A DNA stretch of 32,028 nt, from IMG/VR virus record IMGVR_UViG_3300008111_001458. One strand, written 5' to 3'. Origin of the DNA: a virus (lineage: Duplodnaviria > Heunggongvirae > Uroviricota > Caudoviricetes). A model generated the notes under the pieces. That model was given only the letters and a program-made list of their open reading frames with translations. It ran no database searches and had not been told where the DNA came from. Of the stretch, positions 17,812 to 32,028 are shown one piece after another (within the stretch, counting starts at the first letter, position 1; each line of letters starts with the position of its first letter). Position numbers and translations under genes: made by a program.

Positions 17812-18678
17812 ATGACAAACGCTGGAAAATTATTTGCCGATATGTATAAAGAATCTCTCACAGAGGCTTCTACCACTGGAGATATTATTAAAAGTAAACC
17901 TGGTGGTTCGGCCATTATGAAAGATCTACACACCACCGAACAAACTCCACATGATTTAAAATATGATAAAATAGAAAAAATCAGTTGGAGTGAGTTAAAA
18001 GATTACAGTCGTAAGAGCTGGGTAGTTATTGTAGGTTCCGAAGGAACTGGTGCAATTAAAGTCGATAACAATACATATCTTGCCAAAGCTGCTAAAGCAG
18101 ATGGTGAAGTTAAAAGTTTTAGAAATGACAGAGGCGGCAATATATTAGATTTCCTTAAAGGTAACATTGGAAAATTAAGAGAGTTTCATGTAGCTTTAAA
18201 ACAAAAAGATACCTCGGATACTCAAAGACAGCGAAAAGAACTTAATAAGAAACCCGATGCCGTTAAAGTAAGTCAAGAATCTCTTGTACAAAAATTCAAA
18301 CCTTTATGGACTAAAGCTATTAATTCAGCCATTGTGGATATTAAAGGTCACGTAGTAAATCAAATTAAAAATGATGCATTTGAAAAAGCAGAAAAGAAAT
18401 TACATCATATTAAAAATTTAGAAAATGCTATACAAAATATGAATCAAGATAGATATGGAACAGTTAGTATTATTAAAAGTTCAGTAAATGTAGCAGTCAT
18501 GATGACCGCTGCTCATTACTATCCAGAAAAAACTGGCGATATAACAAAAGATCGTAATGGGTATTCTGTTCAAAATAGAGAAGGTGTGAATCAATTGTTA
18601 ACAGATCTTGAACAAGGTGATACAGCTAAACTTGGAACAGTCCTAGCATTCTTTAAAAGGACATTGATATCAGGATGA
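17812..18678 (+). CDS. hypothetical late protein (288 aa)
   Basis: TAAATA at 17801; ESLTE-A motif near N-terminus. Confidence 0.65.
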   Translation: MTNAGKLFADMYKESLTEASTTGDIIKSKPGGSAIMKDLHTTEQTPHDLKYDKIEKISWSELKDYSRKSWVVIVGSEGTGAIKVDNNTYLAKAAKADGEVKSFRNDRGGNILDFLKGNIGKLREFHVALKQKDTSDTQRQRKELNKKPDAVKVSQESLVQKFKPLWTKAINSAIVDIKGHVVNQIKNDAFEKAEKKLHHIKNLENAIQNMNQDRYGTVSIIKSSVNVAVMMTAAHYYPEKTGDITKDRNGYSVQNREGVNQLLTDLEQGDTAKLGTVLAFFKRTLISG

Positions 18679-19817
18679 AACTAACACAAATTATTCTAGA
18701 AGCAAACATTGCTGCCAAATTAAAAGATCCTAAAATTATAAAAATGTTAGGTATTGCCGTGCGTCACGACGAAACTTTACCAAAACATAAGATAGCAGCA
18801 TTAGGTCCAAAACCTGAAGATGATCAGATTCTTAATTTATGGAGCGAAATACTAGATCAAAGTTTAAGCTCAACTAATTATGGTAATATATCTACCGATG
18901 GTAAATTTGATGATTGGTTAACACGTCTTTATATTAATGGCGTGGTTGATTATGAGGATATCAGCGGAGAAGGTGGAGACGCTCTCGGTGCTTGGAAGGC
19001 TCTGAGTATACGAGGTAAATTAAAGCCAGAACATCAAGACTTTAACAAATTTAAAAGCATAAAAGAAATACAACGTATCGTAAGAATGCAAGAATATCGT
19101 ACAGAATTAGATAGAATTAAAAATGCCGAAGTTATTGAAAAACATAAGCGTGAAAAGAAAGAAACCACACTTATAGATAACGAACGTTTCTTGATTACAC
19201 TGCCTTATAACTACGGTGCTTGCTATACATTTAATAATTCTGCAGGATTCCAAGCCAGCTTCTGTACAGGATCTAGTTCGGGGCTACGTTGGTTCGAACG
19301 CTATGCTCCAGAAGGTCCAATTATTTCTATTTTTGATAAACAAAATCAAGAAGATGAAAATGGTAAATGGCAAATGCATGCCCCAACCGGACAGATGAAC
19401 AACGGAGATCAAAGCGTAACTTATAGAAGTGGTGACAAAAGGTTTTCAGAATTATATCCTGGATTAATGAAAGAAATTATTGCAGCCATGCAGCAAAAGG
19501 CTGAAGAAATTAAAACCAATTCTACTGAAATTACCAGTGGCGGGTACGATGTTGAAGCAGCAATTAATGACATTAAAGATAAGTTACCTTCTTCTTACGC
19601 ATCAGAAGCTCCTAAACCAGAAGTTGAACCAGAAGCCGAACCAGGAGCACAAGTTGACGGTCCTGGAGAATATCTAGTTACACATACTCCTACTGGTAGA
19701 CAGGCACGTATTAATGCAGACGGTCGTGATGATGCACAACAGAAGTTATTACAAAGACATCCTAATATTAATTTAGATGACTTTACATTTGAATTACAGC
19801 CCGGAGAGGCTCAATAA
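18675..19817 (+). CDS. hypothetical late protein (380 aa)
   Basis: ATGA coupling; MKLTQIILE-A start; central FCTG..F..Y..EGP...WQMH segment; separate small C-terminal domain after an acidic Pro linker. Confidence 0.65.
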   Translation: MKLTQIILEANIAAKLKDPKIIKMLGIAVRHDETLPKHKIAALGPKPEDDQILNLWSEILDQSLSSTNYGNISTDGKFDDWLTRLYINGVVDYEDISGEGGDALGAWKALSIRGKLKPEHQDFNKFKSIKEIQRIVRMQEYRTELDRIKNAEVIEKHKREKKETTLIDNERFLITLPYNYGACYTFNNSAGFQASFCTGSSSGLRWFERYAPEGPIISIFDKQNQEDENGKWQMHAPTGQMNNGDQSVTYRSGDKRFSELYPGLMKEIIAAMQQKAEEIKTNSTEITSGGYDVEAAINDIKDKLPSSYASEAPKPEVEPEAEPGAQVDGPGEYLVTHTPTGRQARINADGRDDAQQKLLQRHPNINLDDFTFELQPGEAQ

Positions 19818-19915
19818 CACCTACCTTAGGACGTTATCGTTACTTTAGGTGTGCCCGGCTGCTGGGCAGAACGTTATGGGAGTCGTGCCCCGGAATGGCG
19901 TTCTAAGTGAGCACT
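19817..19915 (+). ncRNA. putative structured RNA with loops antisense to 23S H69-70 and the 16S 530 loop
   Basis: Three stem-loops with G-U pairs on the + strand; loop 1 region pairs with 22 of 24 nt of 23S 1910-1933; loop 2 region gives a perfect 10-nt complement of 16S 518-527 (E. coli numbering). Confidence 0.65.
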
Positions 19916-19918
19916 AAT

Positions 19919-20503
19919 TCAACTAACTATCTTTTGATAGATTTCTTTCCAGTTCTTGACTCGTGGTATCGCTGAATCTTCGTAATCCATATTGTGTCCG
20001 TGTTCCATCAGTAGACTTTTAAGACCTAGGCTATTGCCAACTTGACAGTTAACAATTTTATCTTCAATCCACCACAGTCCGCTATCACGATAAGGTTCTA
20101 AGGCTTCATCTTTGTCTGCACCTGTGTCTAAGAAAATAAATTTTTCAAATGCTGTTTCTCCAAACAATTTCTTTAAATTCATTTTACGTAGTTCTTGTGC
20201 ATTTTCATCTTTACTCAATGATGTAATACAATGAAACACATACCCATGTTCTTCGTGTAGCCGTTTTACATAATACATAGCATCGCGCAATGGAGGCAGG
20301 AATCCCATGTGTGCAGATTCGTTAAAAATCTTTATAAGCTTTTTACCTTGATCCATGTCAATGCCATAACGGGCACCAATATTGTATTTTAAGTTTCCAC
20401 CATCAACTTTATTAAAGCCATGCTGTCGCATGTACACATCAAAAGCGTATTCCCAATCTAGCAGAACACCGTCTGCATCTGTTAATATAATTTTATTTTT
20501 CAT
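19919..20503 (-). CDS. HAD superfamily hydrolase, 5'(3')-deoxyribonucleotidase-like
   Basis: ILTDADGVLLDW (DxD motif I), ITSL (motif II), K, WIEDKIVN (motif IV). Confidence 0.85.
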   Translation of the reverse strand: MKNKIILTDADGVLLDWEYAFDVYMRQHGFNKVDGGNLKYNIGARYGIDMDQGKKLIKIFNESAHMGFLPPLRDAMYYVKRLHEEHGYVFHCITSLSKDENAQELRKMNLKKLFGETAFEKFIFLDTGADKDEALEPYRDSGLWWIEDKIVNCQVGNSLGLKSLLMEHGHNMDYEDSAIPRVKNWKEIYQKIVS

Positions 20504-20691
20504 ATTGTGATATCTATGTTTTGTCCTAATCGATTATCAAGTTCCCTGGCTCTTTGCATATTTTCTATTTTTAGTTTATCAAGATGTTGTTGATGATCTA
20601 CTCTATCGTCATACAGAGTTTTATCTCGCATTTTCGTAAGATAACGTGCATATTCTTCGTAGTAGCGTACTGTAGTGGGATTGATTTTCAT
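20500..20691 (-). CDS. hypothetical protein (63 aa; start corrected to 20691)
   Basis: ATGA overlaps at both ends. Confidence 0.6.
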   Translation of the reverse strand: MKINPTTVRYYEEYARYLTKMRDKTLYDDRVDHQQHLDKLKIENMQRARELDNRLGQNIDITI

Positions 20692-20900
20692 TTGTAGAAT
20701 AATCCTATAACATAGATAATTAATAGACCAATATTGATTACTACTAAATTCCATTCTTTAATCCGTAAACTCCAAATCAAATATAGAACAGCACCAATGT
20801 TAAGCAACCAAATATTTGTAGGATCAATTCTTAAACTGGTACACATGGCCCCTGCTAATGTTATAAAACAAGCAGTCCATTTTAGGATAGAGTTTAGCAT
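20688..20900 (-). CDS. small membrane protein (3 TM)
   Basis: Three hydrophobic segments; consensus promoter directly upstream. Confidence 0.7.
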   Translation of the reverse strand: MLNSILKWTACFITLAGAMCTSLRIDPTNIWLLNIGAVLYLIWSLRIKEWNLVVINIGLLIIYVIGLFYK

Positions 20901-20906
20901 ATTGTG

Positions 20907-20935
20907 ATTATATAATCTGTTATTGAGTATGTCAA
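20907..20935 (-). promoter_or_regulatory. consensus sigma70 promoter (leaderless transcript)
   Basis: TTGACA (20935-20930), 17 nt, TATAAT (20912-20907), 6 nt, ATG (20900). Confidence 0.85.
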
Positions 20936-20937
20936 GC

Positions 20938-20945
20938 TATAAATA
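20938..20945 (+). promoter_or_regulatory. T4-type late promoter
   Basis: Exact TATAAATA, 4 nt before the desaturase ATG at 20950. Confidence 0.75.
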
Positions 20946-20949
20946 CTTG

Positions 20950-21654
20950 ATGGAAATTATTATAGCAACGTTAGTGATGACGCACATCACAATAGTGTGC
21001 GTTACACTATATCTACACAGAAGCCAGGCGCATAGAGGATTAGAGTTTCATCCTATAGTCAGTCATTTTATGCGTTTTTGGTTATGGCTCACAACCGGTA
21101 TGACTACAAAACAATGGGTTGCAATACATCGCAAACACCATCAAATTACAGACGTGGAAGGCGATCCGCACAGCCCGCATGTATTTGGAATATGGACCTT
21201 AATGTTTAGTGGTTGGAGTTTATATAATAACGCCGCCAAAGATCCCGAGTTCGTAGTCAAGTACGGAATGGGCACTCCTAACGACTGGATTGAACACAAG
21301 CTTTATACACCTCACCACAAACTTGGTATTCTCTTAATGCTGATCATAGACTTATTGTTATTTGGACCATGGGGATTCTTAGTGTGGGGCGTTCAGATGA
21401 TATGGATTCCATTCTGGGCCGCTGGTTTTATCAACGGTGTTGGTCATTGGTGGGGATATCGTAATGGCGATACAAATGATTACAGTCACAATGTTAGCCC
21501 AATAGGTATTCTTATCGGTGGTGAAGAGCTACACAACAATCATCACTTAGATCCAGCAAATCCTAAACTAAGTCGTAAGTGGTTTGAATTTGACATTGGG
21601 TGGATGTGGTTTAAGATATTTGAGTTTTTGAAATTAGCAAAACTTAGAACATAA
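20950..21654 (+). CDS. membrane fatty acid desaturase (delta-9/DesA-like)
   Basis: Three His boxes: HRSQAH, HRKHH, HNNHH; TM segments; start 20950 fits the late promoter. Confidence 0.93.
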   Translation: MEIIIATLVMTHITIVCVTLYLHRSQAHRGLEFHPIVSHFMRFWLWLTTGMTTKQWVAIHRKHHQITDVEGDPHSPHVFGIWTLMFSGWSLYNNAAKDPEFVVKYGMGTPNDWIEHKLYTPHHKLGILLMLIIDLLLFGPWGFLVWGVQMIWIPFWAAGFINGVGHWWGYRNGDTNDYSHNVSPIGILIGGEELHNNHHLDPANPKLSRKWFEFDIGWMWFKIFEFLKLAKLRT

Positions 21655-21686
21655 AGAAAAAGCACCCGAAGGTGCTTTTCTTTTTT
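21655..21686. terminator. bidirectional intrinsic terminator
   Basis: AAAAGCACC-CGAA-GGTGCTTTT with A and T tracts, between convergent genes. Confidence 0.88.
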
Positions 21687-21712
21687 CTAGTATATTACTC
21701 TACGAGCGTATA

Positions 21713-21982
21713 TTATTTCTTCACGCCGCTATTAACAAATGCGTACATTTTTTCGGCGGTTTCAAGTACTTTATCTAGACCTGGAAACTCTGGCATGCCA
21801 ACCTTAGTAAGAACTTGTCCAGTTTTCTCATCACGAGAAACTGACATTTCCCAACCGCGAAACTTTGAATGAAAGTCTTCGCTAACTAAGCTCTTAGCCA
21901 TGTCTAGGATGTCTGTACGGATTTCATATCCGTTTTTATTAAATTTAACTTCTGGTAGTCTAGGGGTATCAAAATTTGACAT
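21713..21982 (-). CDS. hypothetical phage protein (89 aa)
   Basis: Strong AAAGGAG RBS; NKNGYEIR..IL.MAK and P.FP...VLETAEKMYAFV motifs. Confidence 0.75.
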   Translation of the reverse strand: MSNFDTPRLPEVKFNKNGYEIRTDILDMAKSLVSEDFHSKFRGWEMSVSRDEKTGQVLTKVGMPEFPGLDKVLETAEKMYAFVNSGVKK

Positions 21983-22071
21983 AATTTTCTCCTTTGTGTG
22001 TATGTCCGTACTATCAAGCTACTTCTGTTTCGCTGACAGTTTAGTATATATGCCTAAAATAAAAAAAACAA

Positions 22072-22647
22072 TTATTTTATGACGCTATCTATCCGTTTGC
22101 GAATTATTTCTATTACTGGTTCTGCCAATACCACTTCATAGTGATTGTAGCCAACCTCTACTAGTTCCATATCCTCGTGGTGCTTCTGACTATGTATACT
22201 GACTACTCCGTCGTTAGGAACTAAGATAAAAGGACTGCGACCCGTAGTAGTAACTATGTTAGTCCAAGGATGCTGTATCTTAATTTTAGCAGCTTCACGC
22301 ATAGCCCAACTGCTAGGCCCTATGTCACGCATAAGTCTGCTAAATGGCAAGAAGTATTGAGCATAGTCTGCTACTTCTGCACCGCCATAAGGTGTGCTTA
22401 GAGTTACTGCTCCTAGAACATGTGCGGGCAAATGATGACTAAGGTGTAAGGCATAAATCCCTCCTAGACTATGAGCAATAAAAAAGCACTGTTTTGAAGC
22501 CATTAAACTGATCTTCATAGAGGCTAAGTTATGCTCAAACCCATCGCGGCTGTCGTAGTTTAGATCTAGCCCTGCACCTAATTGGCTTCTAATATGATTA
22601 AAGCTTTCACTAGTGGCATTGGCCCCGTGTATATAAACCAATTGCAT
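22072..22647 (-). CDS. alpha/beta hydrolase (esterase/lipase-like)
   Basis: YIHGA oxyanion loop, AHSLGG nucleophile elbow, NDGVV (Asp), NHYEV (His); TAAATA (minus) at 22652-22657. Confidence 0.88.
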   Translation of the reverse strand: MQLVYIHGANATSESFNHIRSQLGAGLDLNYDSRDGFEHNLASMKISLMASKQCFFIAHSLGGIYALHLSHHLPAHVLGAVTLSTPYGGAEVADYAQYFLPFSRLMRDIGPSSWAMREAAKIKIQHPWTNIVTTTGRSPFILVPNDGVVSIHSQKHHEDMELVEVGYNHYEVVLAEPVIEIIRKRIDSVIK

Positions 22648-27539: not shown

Positions 27540-28214
27540 ATGACTTTACTAATCGAAAAATTTCAATACCCCACCACCACAAGAACTACTATAAACGGTA
27601 AAAGACATTACGATGCCGGAGACGGCATTCCTGTTCCTAGTGTTACGACTATTCTTGATGCAACAAAAGATAAAACTTTTTTACATGAGTGGCGTAAACG
27701 TGTAGGCGAACAAGCAGCTCAACAGATTACTACAGAGGCTGCAGGGGTTGGGACCTCAATGCACAAGTATCTTGAAGATTATGTCAAAGGAGAACCGCTG
27801 ACTCCTAAGAGCAATATGGTGCATCAACAAGGTTTTAAGATGGCGCATGTCATTATTGAAAAGGGCATGAGCAATGTCAGCGAAATGTGGGGCTCGGAAG
27901 TTAACTTATGTTATCCTGGGCTGTATGCTGGTACCACTGACGGCGTAGGAGTGTTTAACGGCAACCCTGCAATCATTGACTTTAAACAGACCAATAAACC
28001 CAAGAAAGAAGAGTGGGTAGAAGACTACTATCTACAACTAGTGGCCTACGCAATGGCTCACAACGAGATGCACGGAACAGACATAAAGTACGCACATATC
28101 TTGATGTGCAGCAGAGAGCTTCAATATCAACAGTTTGATATTACTCCTGACACATTTAACAAGTGGTCTGACAAGTGGTTAGAGCGGGTTCAGCAATACT
28201 ATGACTCTAGATAA
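27540..28214 (+). CDS. PD-(D/E)xK exonuclease (MGME1/Cas4/RecB-like)
   Basis: PSVTTIL, GTSMH, SEV, YAGTTD, IIDFK (D-x-K) and QL.AY motifs. Confidence 0.88.
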   Translation: MTLLIEKFQYPTTTRTTINGKRHYDAGDGIPVPSVTTILDATKDKTFLHEWRKRVGEQAAQQITTEAAGVGTSMHKYLEDYVKGEPLTPKSNMVHQQGFKMAHVIIEKGMSNVSEMWGSEVNLCYPGLYAGTTDGVGVFNGNPAIIDFKQTNKPKKEEWVEDYYLQLVAYAMAHNEMHGTDIKYAHILMCSRELQYQQFDITPDTFNKWSDKWLERVQQYYDSR

Positions 28215-28238
28215 ATACCCTAACAAGGGTATATTTCT

Positions 28239-29774
28239 ATGGCCGTAGTCCAAATAAGCAAAATACAAATCCGTAAAGGAAAAAAGTTACAAACTGGGAT
28301 TCCTCAGTTAAGTGGCGGTGAGTTCGCCTGGGCAGTTGATACACAAGAACTATACATAGGTAATGGTTCCGTGTTCGAAGGAGCTCCTTTAGTTGGTAAT
28401 ACTAAAATTTTAACAGAATACGATAATATTTTAGATCTTGCTAGAGGTTATAAATTTGCTTCCGGAAATCCTAGTATAACTAGAAGTGTATCTCGTTCAA
28501 TACAATCAAAATTAGATGAATATGTAAGTGTGTTTGATTATGGTGCCAAGGGTGATGGCACTACAAATGATACTGTTGCATTTCAAAGAGCATTAGATGA
28601 TCTTTTTTTAAATGCAAATACAAATTTTAAAAAAGCATTATTCATTCCGTCTGGAAATTATCTAATTTCTTCAGAATTACGTATTCCTAGTAGTGCAGTT
28701 ATTATTGGAGACGGCCAGAATAATACAACTCTTCTCATGAATGCTAGTACTGTAACTTTTAAAACTTCTAGTAATTCAACTTTAGGAAATTTCACAGGGT
28801 CTAATAGGCCAGAAAATATTTCTTTATCAAATTTTAAATTTTATTTTACAAGTGGATCTTTAAATTTAACAGGCGTAAAAAATGCAAAGTTTGATAATAT
28901 AATTTTTGAATCAACATATTCATTAGGCAACAGTACTGAAACTTCAATGGTTAACTGGTCTAATGACATTGACAGCACTAAAGTTACTGATATTTTCTTT
29001 TCTAATTGTAAATTTACCAAAGGATATATTGCAGTATCTGCAATATTTTCATCGGTACTAACTACCAGTGTAAATTTTAATAATTGTAATTTTTATATAT
29101 GTGGTAAAGGAATTTATTTACAAGGGCAAGCCAATCAAAGCAATCAGTGGTCAATTCAAAATTCTCAGTTTGAATTAATCTTCAATCAAGCCATACATGT
29201 AACCAACGGTTACAATATGTCTGTGCAAAATAGTAAATTTTTAATTTGTGCAAATGGATTGAATGATGCAGCTACTCCAACTTTACCTGTTATATCATTT
29301 TCTCAAACAAAAAATAACACAGTCATTGATTGTTATTTTGATAGAACACAAGAAGCCGGAGTATCAAATACATCATCTAAACCGGGATGGCCAGAAGTTC
29401 AGAATAGTTCAAAAACTACAATTATTAATAATGTTGTTACTGACATTGCACTGTCTGATGGTCAAAGAACTTTAGCAGTATTTTCTGCGTTTAATAAATT
29501 TATAAAAATTGATTATGTATTAACTTTAGGAACAAGTATTAGAAAAGGTATATTAACTCTAATAGTTGATGGACTCAGTCCTAGTACTATATCGTTAACT
29601 GACGAATTTAATTTTACATCGGGGGTAACAGTCATGACAGGATTTGAATTTGGAACAAACGTATTTGATAATAATTTAGATTCTGGGATTGATACTATTC
29701 AGTTATGGTATAGAAATCCAATTGCCAATCAATCCACTGGCACTATTTCTTATTTCATAACATACGGTGTTTAA
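28239..29774 (+). CDS. virion protein with pectate-lyase-like parallel beta-helix (tailspike/baseplate-type)
   Basis: N-terminal QIRKG...PQLSGGEFAWAVDTQELYIGNG; VSVFDYGAKGDGTTNDTVAFQRA motif; Asn/Ser-rich beta-helix repeats; TAAATA at 28212. Confidence 0.75.
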   Translation: MAVVQISKIQIRKGKKLQTGIPQLSGGEFAWAVDTQELYIGNGSVFEGAPLVGNTKILTEYDNILDLARGYKFASGNPSITRSVSRSIQSKLDEYVSVFDYGAKGDGTTNDTVAFQRALDDLFLNANTNFKKALFIPSGNYLISSELRIPSSAVIIGDGQNNTTLLMNASTVTFKTSSNSTLGNFTGSNRPENISLSNFKFYFTSGSLNLTGVKNAKFDNIIFESTYSLGNSTETSMVNWSNDIDSTKVTDIFFSNCKFTKGYIAVSAIFSSVLTTSVNFNNCNFYICGKGIYLQGQANQSNQWSIQNSQFELIFNQAIHVTNGYNMSVQNSKFLICANGLNDAATPTLPVISFSQTKNNTVIDCYFDRTQEAGVSNTSSKPGWPEVQNSSKTTIINNVVTDIALSDGQRTLAVFSAFNKFIKIDYVLTLGTSIRKGILTLIVDGLSPSTISLTDEFNFTSGVTVMTGFEFGTNVFDNNLDSGIDTIQLWYRNPIANQSTGTISYFITYGV

Positions 29775-30192
29775 CCTCTATCGCGACGATAGAATTAAAA
29801 TTTGGAGAGAATTTAGAGATGTGTTAGAAACAAGCAATAATCCGCTACAGGATATTGCTGAATTTTGGTCTTTAGCTCCATTTGTTAATCCTTATCTAAA
29901 TCCACAAAAACCTTCTGAATGGCCAGATCCTTGGCGTTTAATTCTCGAAGGCAAATACGATGATCTTGCAATTTCATTAGGAATGCTGTATACTCTGAAA
30001 TTAACACAGCGGTTTATGAATGCCTATTGCGAGATACATACGTCTATGCTCCTCAATGAAAAACATCCTAAATTTTTCGTAGTTGTAGAGCGGTCTGATG
30101 TTTTAAATTTTGAATATAAAAGAAGTTTAAAGATACATGAAGTTTCCCAAATAGATTCACAGATAATATGGCAAGGTAGCACTCTGCCATAA
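29767..30192 (+). CDS. hypothetical protein (141 aa)
   Basis: Overlaps the preceding gene; WPDPW..I motif. Confidence 0.6.
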   Translation: MFNLYRDDRIKIWREFRDVLETSNNPLQDIAEFWSLAPFVNPYLNPQKPSEWPDPWRLILEGKYDDLAISLGMLYTLKLTQRFMNAYCEIHTSMLLNEKHPKFFVVVERSDVLNFEYKRSLKIHEVSQIDSQIIWQGSTLP

Positions 30193-30235
30193 ATATCTGC
30201 TCATCATAAAAAATAATATTGAGGCATAAAGAAAG

Positions 30236-32028
30236 ATGAACATTACAGTTATTAAAAGAAACGGGGAGAGAGAGCCACTAATGATTGAAAAGTGGCAGGC
30301 ACAGGTGGCAAAGGTATGTAAGAGCATTGCTGATGTTAGCCAATCAATGATAGAAATCAAAGCGCAGTTACACTTTTATGATGGTATTACAACTGAAGAG
30401 ATTGATAATATTACTCTTAGAGCGATTGTAGATTTAATCGACGTAGAACATAATCCTGATGTAGGACATACCAATTATCAGTATGTTGCCGGAAAACAAA
30501 GATTATCAATGCTTCGTAAAGACGTATATGGATCTTATGAGGTTCCCCATCTTTATGAAATCGTAAAGAAAAATATTAAAGTTGGTCTTTATACTTCGGA
30601 ACTTCTTGAATGGTATTCAGAAGATGATTGGAATAAGATGAATGATATGTTAGATCATTCTAAAGATGAAGAATATTCCTATGCTGCTATTGAACAACTA
30701 ATTGAAAAATATCTAGTGCGTAATCGTGCTACAAAAGAAATATACGAAACTCCTCAAGTTCGTTATATGATTGCAGCAGCTACAGTATTTCATAAGGAAG
30801 AACCAAATGCTGCCAGAATGCGTTACATAAAGGAATATTATAATGCTGCTAGTGATGGTCTTTTTACTCTTGCTACTCCTGTCCTTGCTGGGCTTGGCAC
30901 TCCGACGAAACAATTTTCTTCTTGCGTTCTCATTAGGTCTGATGATGACCTGGATAGTATATTCGCTAGTGGCGAGATGATGGCCAAGTATGCCAGCAAA
31001 CGTGCTGGCATTGGCTTAGAGATTGGACGTTTGCGTCCTTTGGGTAGTCCAATTCGCGGTGGCGAGATCATGCACACTGGCATGATCCCTTTCCTTAAGA
31101 AGTGGTTTGGTGACCTACGCAGTTGCAGTCAAGGAGGTATTCGTAATGCTAGTGCTACAGTTTTTTATCCTATTTGGCATCATCAGTTTGATGATCTTAT
31201 CGTCCTTAAGAACAACCAAGGCACAGACGAAACCAGAGTCCGTCATATGGATTATGGGGTTGTGCTTAGTGCTTTCTTCTGGAGAAGATTTAAAAACAGA
31301 GAAAACATAACCTTCTTTGATCCTAATGAAGTACCGGATTTATATGAAGCTTTCTACAGCAATACAGAACGCTTTGAAGAATTATATGTTAAATATGAAA
31401 AGCAAAAAAGTCTCCGTAAAAAAGTAATGAGTGCTGAAGAGGTATTCAAAGGAGGCATTTTAAAAGAGCGCACAGACACAGGACGTATCTATCTTGTATT
31501 CATTGACAATGTAATGAATCAAGGTCCGTTTGATACAGAGTATCATACCATTTATCAGAGTAACCTTTGCTGTGAGATCCTATTACCTACGAAACCATTT
31601 AAGAGACTCGACGATCCGGAGGGCAGAATTGCTCTTTGCACCCTTGGGTCCATTAACTGGGGTGCCTTCCGCAATCCTGAAGACATGCGTCGTGCTTGCC
31701 GTATATTGCAGCGTAGTCTTTGCAATATATTGGATTATCAAGATTTTCTAAGTATACAATCTGAGTTAAGCAATCAAGAAATACAACCGTTGGGTATTGG
31801 TGTTACTAATCTAGCCTACTGGCATGCTAAACGTAGTTTGAAATACGGTGAGAAGGATGCACTACAAGAAGTTAAGTCGTGGATGGAACACCAAGCGTTC
31901 TATCTTACAGAAGCAACAGTGGATCTTGCTAAGGAAAGAGGCAAATGTTTAGACAGTAACAAAACTTGGTATGGTAAGGGTGTGTTTCCTTGGGAGCGCA
32001 GAGCTCATGGTGCAAACGAGCTAGCAGA
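30236..32028 (+). CDS. nrdA: ribonucleoside-diphosphate reductase class Ia alpha subunit with ATP cone (partial, runs off window)
   Basis: Manual translation MNITVIKRNGEREPL (ATP cone), ATPVLAGLGT..QFSSCVLI, IYQSNLCCEILLP (Asn/Cys/Glu active site), CTLGSINW, LGIGV. Confidence 0.96.
   Translation, partial: MNITVIKRNGEREPLMIEKWQAQVAKVCKSIADVSQSMIEIKAQLHFYDGITTEEIDNITLRAIVDLIDVEHNPDVGHTNYQYVAGKQRLSMLRKDVYGSYEVPHLYEIVKKNIKVGLYTSELLEWYSEDDWNKMNDMLDHSKDEEYSYAAIEQLIEKYLVRNRATKEIYETPQVRYMIAAATVFHKEEPNAARMRYIKEYYNAASDGLFTLATPVLAGLGTPTKQFSSCVLIRSDDDLDSIFASGEMMAKYASKRAGIGLEIGRLRPLGSPIRGGEIMHTGMIPFLKKWFGDLRSCSQGGIRNASATVFYPIWHHQFDDLIVLKNNQGTDETRVRHMDYGVVLSAFFWRRFKNRENITFFDPNEVPDLYEAFYSNTERFEELYVKYEKQKSLRKKVMSAEEVFKGGILKERTDTGRIYLVFIDNVMNQGPFDTEYHTIYQSNLCCEILLPTKPFKRLDDPEGRIALCTLGSINWGAFRNPEDMRRACRILQRSLCNILDYQDFLSIQSELSNQEIQPLGIGVTNLAYWHAKRSLKYGEKDALQEVKSWMEHQAFYLTEATVDLAKERGKCLDSNKTWYGKGVFPWERRAHGANELA

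Follow-up and report, generated by a model that had tools for sequence, protein, structure and literature searches.

The question raised by this locus is what occupies the 101-bp gap (19818-19918) that the ORF list leaves between a + strand ORF (18675-19817) and a - strand ORF (19919-20503) in the window, i.e., the whole 32,028-nt stretch of viral DNA analysed here, and what it might act on. A sequence-only reading had placed in this gap an RNA with three stems, P1, P2, and P3, and with loops antisense to both ribosomal subunits. The coordinates and letters of the three stems and the 101-bp convergent gap itself were all verified in the sequence and the ORF list.

A phage RNA family and its neighbourhood

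The gap contains, in a single copy, a pseudoknotted and conserved non-coding RNA of ~85-105 nt. RNAs of this family occur in >300 IMG/VR viral contigs, including complete phages of ~353 kb, and their carriers are large freshwater T4-like and jumbo phages. The family (R1) is defined by a P1 whose loop contains CUUAGG, by the pairing of the P2 loop with the 3' tail, and by P3; the window copy has all of these and, with 112.6 bits (E = 1.4e-27), is the best of all matches to the family covariance model. An exact 23-mer is found in 65 viral contigs, and looser patterns give at least that many matches. The covariance model finds a single match at each locus and, in four of five contigs of 238-354 kb, a single match in the genome, and a divergent paralog in a complete 353-kb phage retains UCGCUACCU, with only ACCUUA retained in its P1 loop.

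The Infernal-style comparison with Rfam that had been proposed along with the sequence-only reading was run, and none of the 4227 models of Rfam 15 matched at the gathering threshold over the whole window; at E <= 10, the sole match within 19750-19980 was a spurious minus-strand S15 leader (E = 7.4, 16.9 bits against a cutoff of 46.5). ARAGORN found no tRNA or tmRNA genes in the window, and in blastn 19700-20050 matched none of 50,697 phage records, the family being found here in uncultivated contigs only. A pattern scan of bacterial and archaeal genomes returned 33 matches, of which only a 14.5-kb contig in a Lishizhenia MAG, perhaps a binned phage, is genuine; the other 32 were rejected as GC-rich chance matches. 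In the literature search, no paper with GGAGUCGUGCCC in either spelling was found, CCTTAGGAC appeared only in unrelated papers among the matches listed, and neither a description of a phage RNA antisense to H69 nor a precedent was found. The small folded phage RNA is real and widespread and, apparently, undescribed. Fremin et al. 2023 (PMC10690425) obtained ~10,000 candidate structured RNAs from IMG/VR phages, i.e., from the same data source, and these are likewise covariation-supported phage motifs outside Rfam. The main text of that paper gives no rRNA predictions overlapping the candidates and no description of the present motif; the family may be among the candidates.

The 380-aa upstream ORF (18675-19817, + strand), whose TAA stop (19815-19817) overlaps the first base of P1, has no match in Pfam or PHROG, and an ORF of its cluster precedes the element in 41 loci. 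Throughout the family, the element is invariably preceded by an ORF on its own strand, whose stop codon is no more than ~20 nt away in 121 of 155 loci. No conserved promoter appears upstream of the element in the position profile of 178 unique flanks, where the information content is ~0 from -40 to -1 and increases only in the 6 nt preceding P1, which form an A-rich 5' leader (19811-19816, + strand; WAARAA in the family). Most likely, the window RNA is transcribed together with the 380-aa ORF. At the other end, the 3' flank (19913-19918, + strand) is A/U-rich and G-poor in the family profile and has no U-run adjoining a stem, and no site within 18600-21000 of the window resembles an intrinsic (Rho-independent) terminator, that is, a GC-rich hairpin followed by a U-tract.

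Downstream lies an NT5C-like gene (phrog_420; 19919-20503, - strand) in convergent orientation. This arrangement is atypical for the family, in which the downstream gene is co-oriented in 146 and convergent in 30 of the 176 non-redundant loci (83% co-oriented). The ORFs flanking the family loci fall into at least 34 clusters downstream and at least 25 upstream, no protein gene is common to every locus, and even the best co-located clusters are present at no more than 59-65% of loci and missing beside the window copy. In 40 of 146 loci, the first 50 nt downstream contain a TAAATA motif resembling a late promoter, whereas other 50-nt bins have ~2. As to expression, a 154-nt RNA-library contig identical to 19746-19899 joins the upstream coding sequence to the element, and a 252-nt contig from a relative covers the whole element uncut; at a depth of ~2 and with DNA carry-over possible, both indicate presence rather than ends, strand, or partner. 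Thirteen RNA-labelled runs share words with the element, two of them confirmed by a contig; neither the remaining runs nor the absence of RNA-library contig cover over the flanking genes counts as evidence.

The setting would suit a cis-acting end of the transcription unit, namely a 3' exonuclease protector, an unconventional terminator, or a processing site devoid of any trans function. The constant place shortly after the stop codon of a co-oriented ORF, the lack of an own promoter, the nearby TAAATA motif, the position of the window copy between convergent genes lacking a canonical terminator, and the link to the upstream coding sequence in the RNA-library contigs all fit this explanation. 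However, a protective or terminating fold needs neither an invariant 10-nt loop nor a sequence-specific pseudoknot, the U-tract is absent, and there is one copy per 240-350 kb genome, though operon ends are many there, and an exclusively cis-acting role is regarded as improbable. The cis-element reading is itself compatible with an antisense one, as in sRNAs that derive from 3' UTRs.

Fold, pseudoknot, and strand

The P1 hairpin (19817-19852, + strand) has the stem ACACCUA (19817-19823)/UAGGUGU (19846-19852), in which seven of seven pairs show compensatory changes, and encloses an apical region that opens with the invariant core CCUUAGGAC (19824-19832, + strand; CCUUAGGACC in most relatives), unpaired in the MFE fold of the window. 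The core runs into the inner hairpin P1a, ACG-UUAU-CGU plus UAC (19831-19843, + strand), which covaries in the forms ACG/CGU, CC/GG, AACGC/GCGUU, and CGGUA/UACCG and is missing from minimal forms of ~84 nt. The P2 hairpin GCCC-GGCUGCU-GGGC (19853-19867, + strand; pairing 19852/3-19867/8) exposes the loop GGCUGCU (19857-19863), and its outer pairs covary. Lastly, the P3 hairpin (19868-19904, + strand) combines a variable outer stem (19868-19877/19895-19904), with two U-G pairs in the window, and a class-1 cap GGGAGUCGUGCCCC (19878-19891, + strand), of which GGG-AGUCGUG-CCC takes up 19878-19890. In 91 distinct relatives, compensatory changes affect all 10 pairs of this outer stem, and U-G is the commonest pair at two of its positions.

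Over the whole fold, 92% of the cells in these 91 relatives are canonically paired and compensatory changes occur at 22 of 31 pairs, with 550 both-side-changed cells observed against 186 +/- 14 in shuffles and far lower values in slid controls. Covariation thus supports P1, P2, and P3 on the + strand. The + strand folds better (lower folding energy) in 114 of 119 variants, and this energy, together with the conserved U-G pairs, indicates the strand; the window sequence taken alone gives a fold z-score of only -1.7. The earlier claim of a structured + strand phage RNA is, therefore, borne out by the compensatory changes, the U-G pairs, and the folding energy. The fold presents the P1 apical loop single-stranded. 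Two further pairings were considered and rejected: that of the P1 loop with the P3 loop or the 5' leader, which on inspection amounts to just 3-4 bp without covariation, and an extended CUUAGG/CCUAAG pairing, in which AAG alone is conserved and spacer bases lie in between.

The 3' tail AAGUGAGC (19905-19912, + strand) provides the 3' strand of a pseudoknot with the P2 loop (19857-19863), a pairing of GGCUGCU with AGUGAGC that compensatory changes across relatives demonstrate. In the window, the pairs are G19858-C19912, C19859-G19911, U19860-A19910, G19861-U19908, C19862-G19907, and U19863-A19906, with G19909 bulged. Loop and tail change together, as in GCCUGCU/GAGG, GGGUGCU/GACC, GGCUACU/GUGUAGC, GGCCACU/GUGUGGC, GACCACU/AGUGGU, CGCUGU/ACAGC, and GGUUACU/AGUAGC, and the helix is 98% paired, with the changes GC>CG, CG>GC, GU>AU, and GU>GC; the pseudoknot is proven by covariation. 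This result bears on the second ribosomal contact of the sequence-only reading, a perfect complement of 16S 518-527 at 19856-19865. The match is present, with a score that alone falls below the mean best score of shuffles, and is accounted for by the intramolecular pseudoknot. Specifically, among 125 members found without constraining P2, the P2 loop is GGCUGCU in 112, and the remaining 13 lose the match to the 16S 530 loop yet retain the pseudoknot. Most simply, the complementarity of P2 to the 530 loop is a by-product of the pseudoknot.

A self-cleaving ribozyme of a new type, or an aptamer that binds a ligand as a riboswitch or signal sponge, could also look like this, with a pseudoknotted, compact fold, few invariant nucleotides, variable phage neighbourhoods, and no match in Rfam. 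The order P1-P2-P3-P1'-P4-P2' with an obligatory P3/L3 that marks HDV-like ribozymes is, however, not the order seen here, where the pseudoknot joins the P2 loop to the tail and the P3-like inner hairpin is optional, and the RNA-library contig that spans the element uncut speaks, weakly, against self-cleavage. As for sensing in cis, the element holds no constant 5'-UTR position before coherent genes, and the variety of downstream clusters (at least 34) and of orientations (30 of 176 loci convergent) rules out a classical riboswitch. Overall, catalysis or ligand binding is given very little credence.

Complementarity to helices 69 and 70 of 23S rRNA

Aligned with E. coli 23S 1910-1933, the antisense of 19821-19843 is identical in 22 of 24 positions, the exceptions being a mismatch at 1915 and a gap, as had been claimed from the sequence; the score of 36 is reached by 0 of 2000 dinucleotide shuffles of the 99-nt element anywhere in 16S, 23S, and 5S rRNA. 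The complementarity is unevenly conserved. The core CCUUAGGAC is antisense to 23S 1922-1930 in the window, and CCUUAGGACC in the relatives to 1921-1930, a segment that comprises the 3' strand of helix 69 (H69) and its link to helix 70 (H70) at the subunit interface. Among 161 unique members, complementarity is 92-100% at 1922-1930, declines on both sides, and is zero past 1933, whereas 1910-1921 is matched in only 57-82% of members and position 1915 in 12%. P1a, which in the window is antisense to the H69 loop (23S 1910-1920), varies as a hairpin does, through compensatory changes at the expense of the rRNA complementarity, and is dispensable in the minimal forms. Hence, of the antisense loop that the sequence-only reading had taken as a unit, CCUUAGGACC is the only universal part of the P1 loop, and the part facing the H69 loop is an optional covarying inner hairpin.

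The likeness extends beyond the core, since in 52 of 98 types the loop stripped of the core is still similar to antisense 1900-1922 (p < 0.05 against their own shuffles), among them the structurally different hairpins CCGUUUAGUUACGG, CUUAUAGUUA, and GUUAUCGUUAC. These comparisons support the view that the P1 apical region is related to antisense 23S H69-H70 well beyond chance and family-wide. When the core 10-mer is shuffled, a match anywhere in rRNA arises with p = 0.008, a nominal value that, like the others, overstates the evidence because the match was picked out after the fact from a very large scan. In a ranking of 216 rRNA windows by duplex energy, 23S 1861-1941 came first for five of six family representatives and second for the window, the windowed duplex folding serving for ranking alone given its unrealistically long duplexes. 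Moreover, a search for a target in phage transcripts found GTCCTAAGG on the strand of the RNA neither in 2.5 Mb of loci nor elsewhere in the window.

As for the target, 23S 1911-1942 is identical in E. coli and in all 17 Bacteroidota genomes having a match, and a Massilia and a Firmicute share the entire 33 nt of 1910-1942 as well; the identity of the target segment across these bacteria fits a P1 loop that is invariant over phages with differing flanking genes. The actinobacterial 23S rRNA differs (CCAUCC), and a search for the corresponding loop CUUAGGAUG next to GGCUGCU gave only unrelated coding-sequence families, an uninformative outcome.

The same match, read as DNA or on the other strand, had suggested a decoy or target of an I-CeuI-type homing endonuclease or, on the minus strand, a mimic of H69 and the 530 loop; the sequence of that strand is GTAACGATAACGTCCTAAGGTAG, which resembles the region of 23S rDNA that holds the I-CeuI site (~26 bp, 1911-1937). 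The left half of that site is conserved in only 57-70% of members and nothing is conserved from 1934 onward; with the family conservation stopping at 1933, the right half-site (GCGAA) is missing beside P1, which speaks against the decoy. The mimic agrees no better with the data: compensatory changes and conserved U-G pairs reveal selection on pairing in the + strand RNA, minus-strand transcription is not expected where 83% of the downstream genes are co-oriented, and nothing in rDNA corresponds to P2 and P3 in their order. The DNA-level or minus-strand explanation is largely refuted.

A further loop points to the same rRNA region. In the sister class 2, the P3 loop is AUUCGCUACC, antisense to the adjoining 23S 1929-1937, and its UCGCUAC is invariant in 66 of 66 unique members, with conservation of 0.76-0.98 at the flanking bases. 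The corresponding target GGUAGCGAA occurs once in the E. coli rRNAs, at 1929-1937, and the match to the 1890-1990 region has p = 0.002-0.005 in shuffles. Because the targets of P1 and of the class-2 P3 share 1929-1933 and follow an order that is not collinear with the RNA, full pairing of both loops at once is impossible. The class-1 P3 cap, borne by the window copy and ~55% of members, has no significant rRNA complement: the match of UCGUGC to 23S 1964-1969 brought forward earlier is present, with p = 0.34, and was discarded. So was that of the tail, CUAAGUGAGC, to 16S ~266-275, which does pair at 9 of 10 positions, a chance-level result (0.13 such matches expected) with two of the bases in the variable P3 stem. 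The length of P1 complementarity differs between P3 classes (medians of 21 and 15 nt, p = 9e-4) in a comparison that is phylogenetically confounded.

Alternatively, the element may be a scaffold RNA with a non-rRNA partner, i.e., a phage or host protein or another RNA, with the invariant loops serving as protein-binding or tertiary-contact motifs and a likeness to rRNA that is a vestige or a coincidence. In line with this, P3 is capped differently in class 1 and class 2, and the class-1 cap finds no match in rRNA; P1a shows the behaviour of a structural hairpin; the P2 loop, for which a pairing with rRNA had been suspected, pairs within the molecule; the P1 loop of the paralog is different; and 9-nt matches to rRNA in sense orientation are found in other loops too, e.g., in class 3. 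Against such a partner stand the complementarity of two different loops to neighbouring parts of a single 20-nt stretch of rRNA, the leaning of architecturally different P1a variants toward antisense H69, and the lack of a protein gene shared by every locus, the best clusters stopping at 59-65% and being absent beside the window copy. The non-rRNA partner is kept as a possible, albeit doubtful, explanation.

A putative antisense RNA against the large subunit

The reading preferred here is that of a pseudoknot-scaffolded antisense RNA targeting 23S H69-H70, to which a probability of roughly 0.4 is assigned from sequence comparison. The RNA would be transcribed with the upstream gene, perhaps excised at its A/U-rich flanks, and would act in trans, its loop pairing with 23S rRNA that is nascent or in free 50S subunits. 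Two points count against it: in the mature ribosome, 1906-1924 is helical and lies at the interface, which may limit access, and the RNA would face tens of thousands of ribosomes, which may exceed its copy number. The pairing might keep H69 and bridge B2a from forming or might mark the rRNA for cleavage, and the phage would thereby control or dismantle the host ribosomes. A bolder version, in which this would be the first natural antisense RNA against rRNA in bacteria or phages, clamping H69-H70 with one or two apical loops (and conceivably the 530 loop with the P2 loop), blocking 50S maturation or subunit joining or marking rRNA for cleavage, and so shutting down or recycling ribosomes whatever the host, the target being universal, is tentative and, on the sequence comparisons at hand, unlikely. 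To our knowledge, no base-pairing attack on rRNA has been described for bacteria or phages or among their defence systems.

Among known systems, the closest in design are the kissing-loop antisense RNAs, such as OxyS-fhlA (with two loop contacts), CopA/CopT, and RNA I/RNA II, which share with the phage RNA exposed loops bearing 7-15 nt of target complementarity. An exposed conserved loop complementary to a defined target is found here in CCUUAGGAC(C) and in the class-2 P3, and one subclass of the phage RNA would address neighbouring segments with two loops. The presumed target is, however, rRNA rather than an mRNA or a plasmid primer, the scaffold is pseudoknotted and set after a gene, an Hfq-type terminator module is lacking, and the pairing is predicted from sequence. 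Archaeal and eukaryotic box C/D and H/ACA guide RNAs are likewise small and structured and carry 10-20 nt complementary to conserved rRNA, and in eukaryotes the pseudouridines of H69 are guided by rRNA-complementary small RNAs. Conversely, 19811-19918, when read directly, contains neither C/D boxes (RUGAUGA, CUGA) nor H/ACA boxes, and the complementary bases of the phage RNA sit in an apical hairpin loop instead of an internal pocket; we know of no use of rRNA guide RNAs by bacteria or phages. The T-shaped structure of turnip crinkle virus and BTE-type elements with rRNA complementarity, mostly tRNA-shape mimics, are ribosome-binding elements in the 3' UTRs of plant viruses and enhance translation in cis in eukaryotes. 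They resemble the phage RNA in size (~100 nt), in combining hairpins and pseudoknots after a viral coding region, and in a proposed contact with the large subunit or its rRNA, whereas the phage contact would be Watson-Crick pairing to bacterial H69-H70, with no kinship in sequence or Rfam. Lastly, synthetic anti-H69 oligomers (PNA, 2'-O-methyl) inhibit translation in vitro, indicating that the site can be reached by antisense. They address the same target helix but are artificial, short, and unstructured, and the phage RNA centres on the H69 3' strand and the H70 linker (1921-1930) rather than on the H69 loop.

Regardless of any link to rRNA, a very common RNA family of freshwater phages outside Rfam (>300 loci) is now described with its secondary structure, pseudoknot, and subclasses. 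The idea of an rRNA target lends itself to a direct test in E. coli, which has the identical target sequence. Should the loops indeed pair with 23S rRNA, these phages would hit the most conserved RNA of the ribosome by simple base pairing and would provide the natural counterpart of the synthetic anti-H69 oligomers; ribosomes recycled in this way could, moreover, supply nucleotides and phosphorus for the RNR-fed DNA synthesis of the phage.

A conserved plus-strand RNA with a loop-tail pseudoknot

The element (19817-19915) fills a 101-bp gap between a plus-strand ORF (18675-19817) and a convergent minus-strand ORF (19919-20503), and the window, read directly, contains exactly the helices and sequences that a sequence-only reading had described there. 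Across 91 distinct sequences of the family, 92% of cells are canonically paired, compensatory double changes occur in 22/31 pairs, and double-change cells number 550 versus 186 +/- 14 after shuffling, with slid controls collapsing. Nearly all Watson-Crick combinations occur in the P1 and P3 outer stems, two P3 positions are mostly U-G, and the plus strand folds better in 114/119 variants (mean -31.2 versus -23.9 kcal/mol); therefore, the RNA is the plus strand, as first assigned, and the minus-strand rRNA mimic proposed as an alternative fails. More broadly, a function of the DNA itself or of the minus strand fits poorly and is highly improbable, and a ribozyme or aptamer, also a poor fit to the data, is improbable.

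When P2 is left free in the search, each variant of its loop, among the matches listed, comes with a 3' tail (after P3) that has changed to match: GCCUGCU with GUGAGG, GGGUGCU with GACC, GGCUACU with GUGUAGC, GGCCACU with GUGUGGC, GACCACU with AGUGGU, CGCUGU with ACAGC, and GGUUACU with AGUAGC. This helix is 98% paired in 94 distinct sequences, with exchanges GC>CG, CG>GC, GU>AU, and GU>GC, so that the family is a conserved RNA with a P2-loop/tail pseudoknot. Since the pseudoknot covaries, the invariance of GGCUGCU and of the tail AAGUGAGC is explained inside the molecule. The P2 loop had been regarded as antisense to the 16S 530 loop: the 10-mer match to 16S 518-527 is indeed perfect, yet alone it scores below the mean best shuffle score, and CGGCUGCUG, the invariant stretch of nine bases, is exactly antisense to 16S 519-527, for which the nominal chance is ~0.02. 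Because the pseudoknot accounts for the invariance and 13/125 members of the P2-free search, among the matches listed, keep the pseudoknot and lose the match, pairing with 16S is unsupported, though conceivable.

Complementarity of the hairpin loops to 23S rRNA

In comparison with the real E. coli rrnH operon (L164), the reverse complement of 19821-43 agrees with 23S 1910-1933 at 22/24 positions, with one mismatch opposite 1915 and one gap, in line with the pairing originally proposed; its score of 36 is reached by 0/2000 dinucleotide-preserving shuffles of the 99-nt element (maximum 31) against either strand of 16S, 23S, and 5S. In 161 unique P1 regions, among the matches listed, complementarity is 92-100% at 1922-1930, 58-82% at 1916-1921, 57-65% at 1910-1914, 12% at 1915, 54-76% at 1931-33, and zero beyond. 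The CUA opposite 1931-33 belongs to the P1 stem, which covaries, and the part facing the H69 loop forms an inner hairpin with compensatory substitutions (ACG/CGU, CC/GG, AACGC/GCGUU, CGGUA/UACCG, CGUAAC/GUUACG) that is absent entirely from minimal forms of ~84 nt. Since this part covaries as a hairpin and is sometimes missing, only CCUUAGGAC(C), antisense in its bases to 23S 1921/22-1930, is universal. Homologues had been expected to combine covarying stems with invariant rRNA-complementary loops, and this holds for the stems and the P1 core, not for the H69-loop part or for the P2 loop, which changes with the tail.

Shuffles of the 10-mer core match anywhere in the rRNAs at p = 0.008, a nominal value that is post hoc in a very large scan and comes from a family whose members are not independent. 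Rare core variants, GGAAC (CCUUAGGAAC; loci L067, L078, L080) and GGGCC (CCUUAGGGCC; loci L072, L162), are one position off the 23S complement. Even without the core, what remains of loop 1 lies nearer to antisense 1900-1922 than shuffles of itself do in 52/98 sequence types, which are related by descent, so that the count is no probability. These types include architecturally different hairpins, such as CCGUUUAGUUACGG, CUUAUAGUUA, and the GUUAUCGUUAC of the window; together with the core, the CCGUUUAGUUACGG hairpin, of an architecture unlike that of the window, reaches 22/23 over 1908-1930. Judged by such complementarity, the antisense-H69 likeness does show as a family trait and not as an accident of the window.

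Leaving P3 free reveals a second major class (66/156 unique members, among the matches listed), in which the cap AUUCGCUACC stands in place of the class-1 cap GGAGUCGUGCCC of the window. Its bases UCGCUAC are invariant and, with the flanking U and C, antisense to GGUAGCGAA. The E. coli rRNAs contain this sequence a single time, at 23S 1929-1937, adjoining and overlapping the P1 target; shuffles reach this match in the 1890-1990 region at p = 0.002-0.005, again nominal and post hoc. For the class-1 cap, no rRNA match is significant, and two weaker matches suggested earlier (UCGUGC to 23S 1964-69 and 9/10 bases to 16S 266-275) are at chance level. A captured rDNA fragment was considered and rejected, because the P1 and class-2 P3 loops are not collinear with their target and overlap at 1929-33.

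Distribution and genomic setting

The exact loop-1 23-mer of the window is present in 65 IMG/VR contigs, and further copies were gathered with three looser patterns, each freeing one hairpin, whose counts are those among the matches listed. Trained on 63 diverse copies, a covariance model gives one match per locus (198 further searches) and a single match per genome in 4/5 large contigs. In the fifth, which is a complete phage of 353 kb (G005), the normal copy is joined by a divergent paralog (L322:1501-1589; genome 76930-77018) that retains GGCUGCU as its P2 loop, AAGUGAGC as its tail, and the class-2 P3 loop UCGCUACCU, antisense to 23S 1928-1936, and differs in its P1 loop (..CAACCUUAA). Rfam 15, a proposed check, contains nothing similar to the element, and ARAGORN finds no tRNA or tmRNA in the window. 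In the literature full text searched, GGAGUCGUGCCC is found in neither spelling and CCTTAGGAC, among the matches listed, in unrelated papers only. Two metatranscriptome assemblies contain the element, in contigs of 154 nt (identical to window 19746-19899) and 252 nt (from a relative, spanning the whole element with unrelated flanks), both at a depth of ~2 that informs on presence and not on strand, ends, or abundance.

The element derives from uncultivated large freshwater phages, because the structural proteins of the window are ~50% identical to T4-like cyanophage counterparts, none of 50,697 deposited phage genomes matches its DNA, related contigs measure 238-354 kb (two at least 98% complete), and the DNA runs holding the window are lake or freshwater metagenomes. 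Neighbouring cargo genes (19919-22647 region) code for an NT5C-like nucleotidase (phrog_420), a fatty-acid desaturase (20923-21654), and a small alpha/beta hydrolase (22072-22647), and those at 27540-32026 for an exonuclease (27540-28214), a tail-spike-like protein (28239-29774), and the NrdA large subunit (30236 onward). The minus-strand operon 20754-19919 is headed by a perfect sigma-70 consensus promoter, TTGACA-17-TATAAT (20907-20935, minus strand); as no terminator intervenes, it would be transcribed into the element in antisense.

Throughout the family, the element comes after a co-oriented ORF, generally with the stop codon right at P1, and the neighbouring ORFs form at least 25 clusters upstream and at least 34 downstream. 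The gene that comes next has the same orientation in 146 loci and is convergent in 30, including the window; in ~60% of loci, a small DsbA-like gene and the gene for a family-B (gp43-type) DNA polymerase follow about 0.3-1.6 kb downstream, a synteny broken in the window. The T4-late-promoter-like TAAATA occurs within 50 nt downstream in 40/146 loci versus ~2 per bin elsewhere (~20-fold enriched), often 5-8 nt before the next ATG, a spacing that fits near-leaderless late mRNAs. Upstream there is no conserved promoter, conservation outside the element being confined to an A-rich leader of 6 nt and a trailer rich in A/U and poor in G, and no canonical terminator is found at the element. Given the diverse neighbours and the lack of its own promoter and terminator, the element is a self-contained module at the end of transcription units in a variable region, and not the leader of one particular gene. 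Action solely in cis, at the 3' end of the mRNA, would agree with some of these data but leaves the invariant loops unexplained, and is unlikely.

Possible action on the ribosome and host range

The exposed invariant P1 loop antisense to 23S 1921-1930, its lineage-specific extensions into antisense H69, and the sister-class P3 loop antisense to 23S 1929-1937, all recognized by base complementarity, suggest tentatively (roughly 40%) that the loops would pair with 23S rRNA, nascent or in the free 50S subunit, and would disturb H69 and bridge B2a or provoke cleavage. The strongest competing reading, somewhat less probable, is a scaffold RNA with another partner, in which the rRNA likeness would be vestigial or coincidental.

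Among 185,579 prokaryote species (one genome each), the pattern scan gives 33 matches and only one true family member, L178:1095-1199 (-), located in a Lishizhenia (Bacteroidota) MAG on a contig of 14.5 kb. That contig may come from a phage and have been binned together with its host; if so, some of the family may have Bacteroidota hosts. 23S 1911-1942 is identical in E. coli and in 17/17 Bacteroidota genomes with a match, and the full 33-nt 1910-1942 also in a Massilia and a Firmicute. The 23S of a Nocardioides (G007, contig C1, 4253-4285) differs at 1921-1922, with CCAUCC in place of CGGUCC (AACCAUCCUAAGG versus AACGGUCCUAAGG in E. coli, the Massilia, the Firmicute, and the 17 Bacteroidota), so that the invariant phage loop would mismatch it, which gives a prediction on the host range of these phages.
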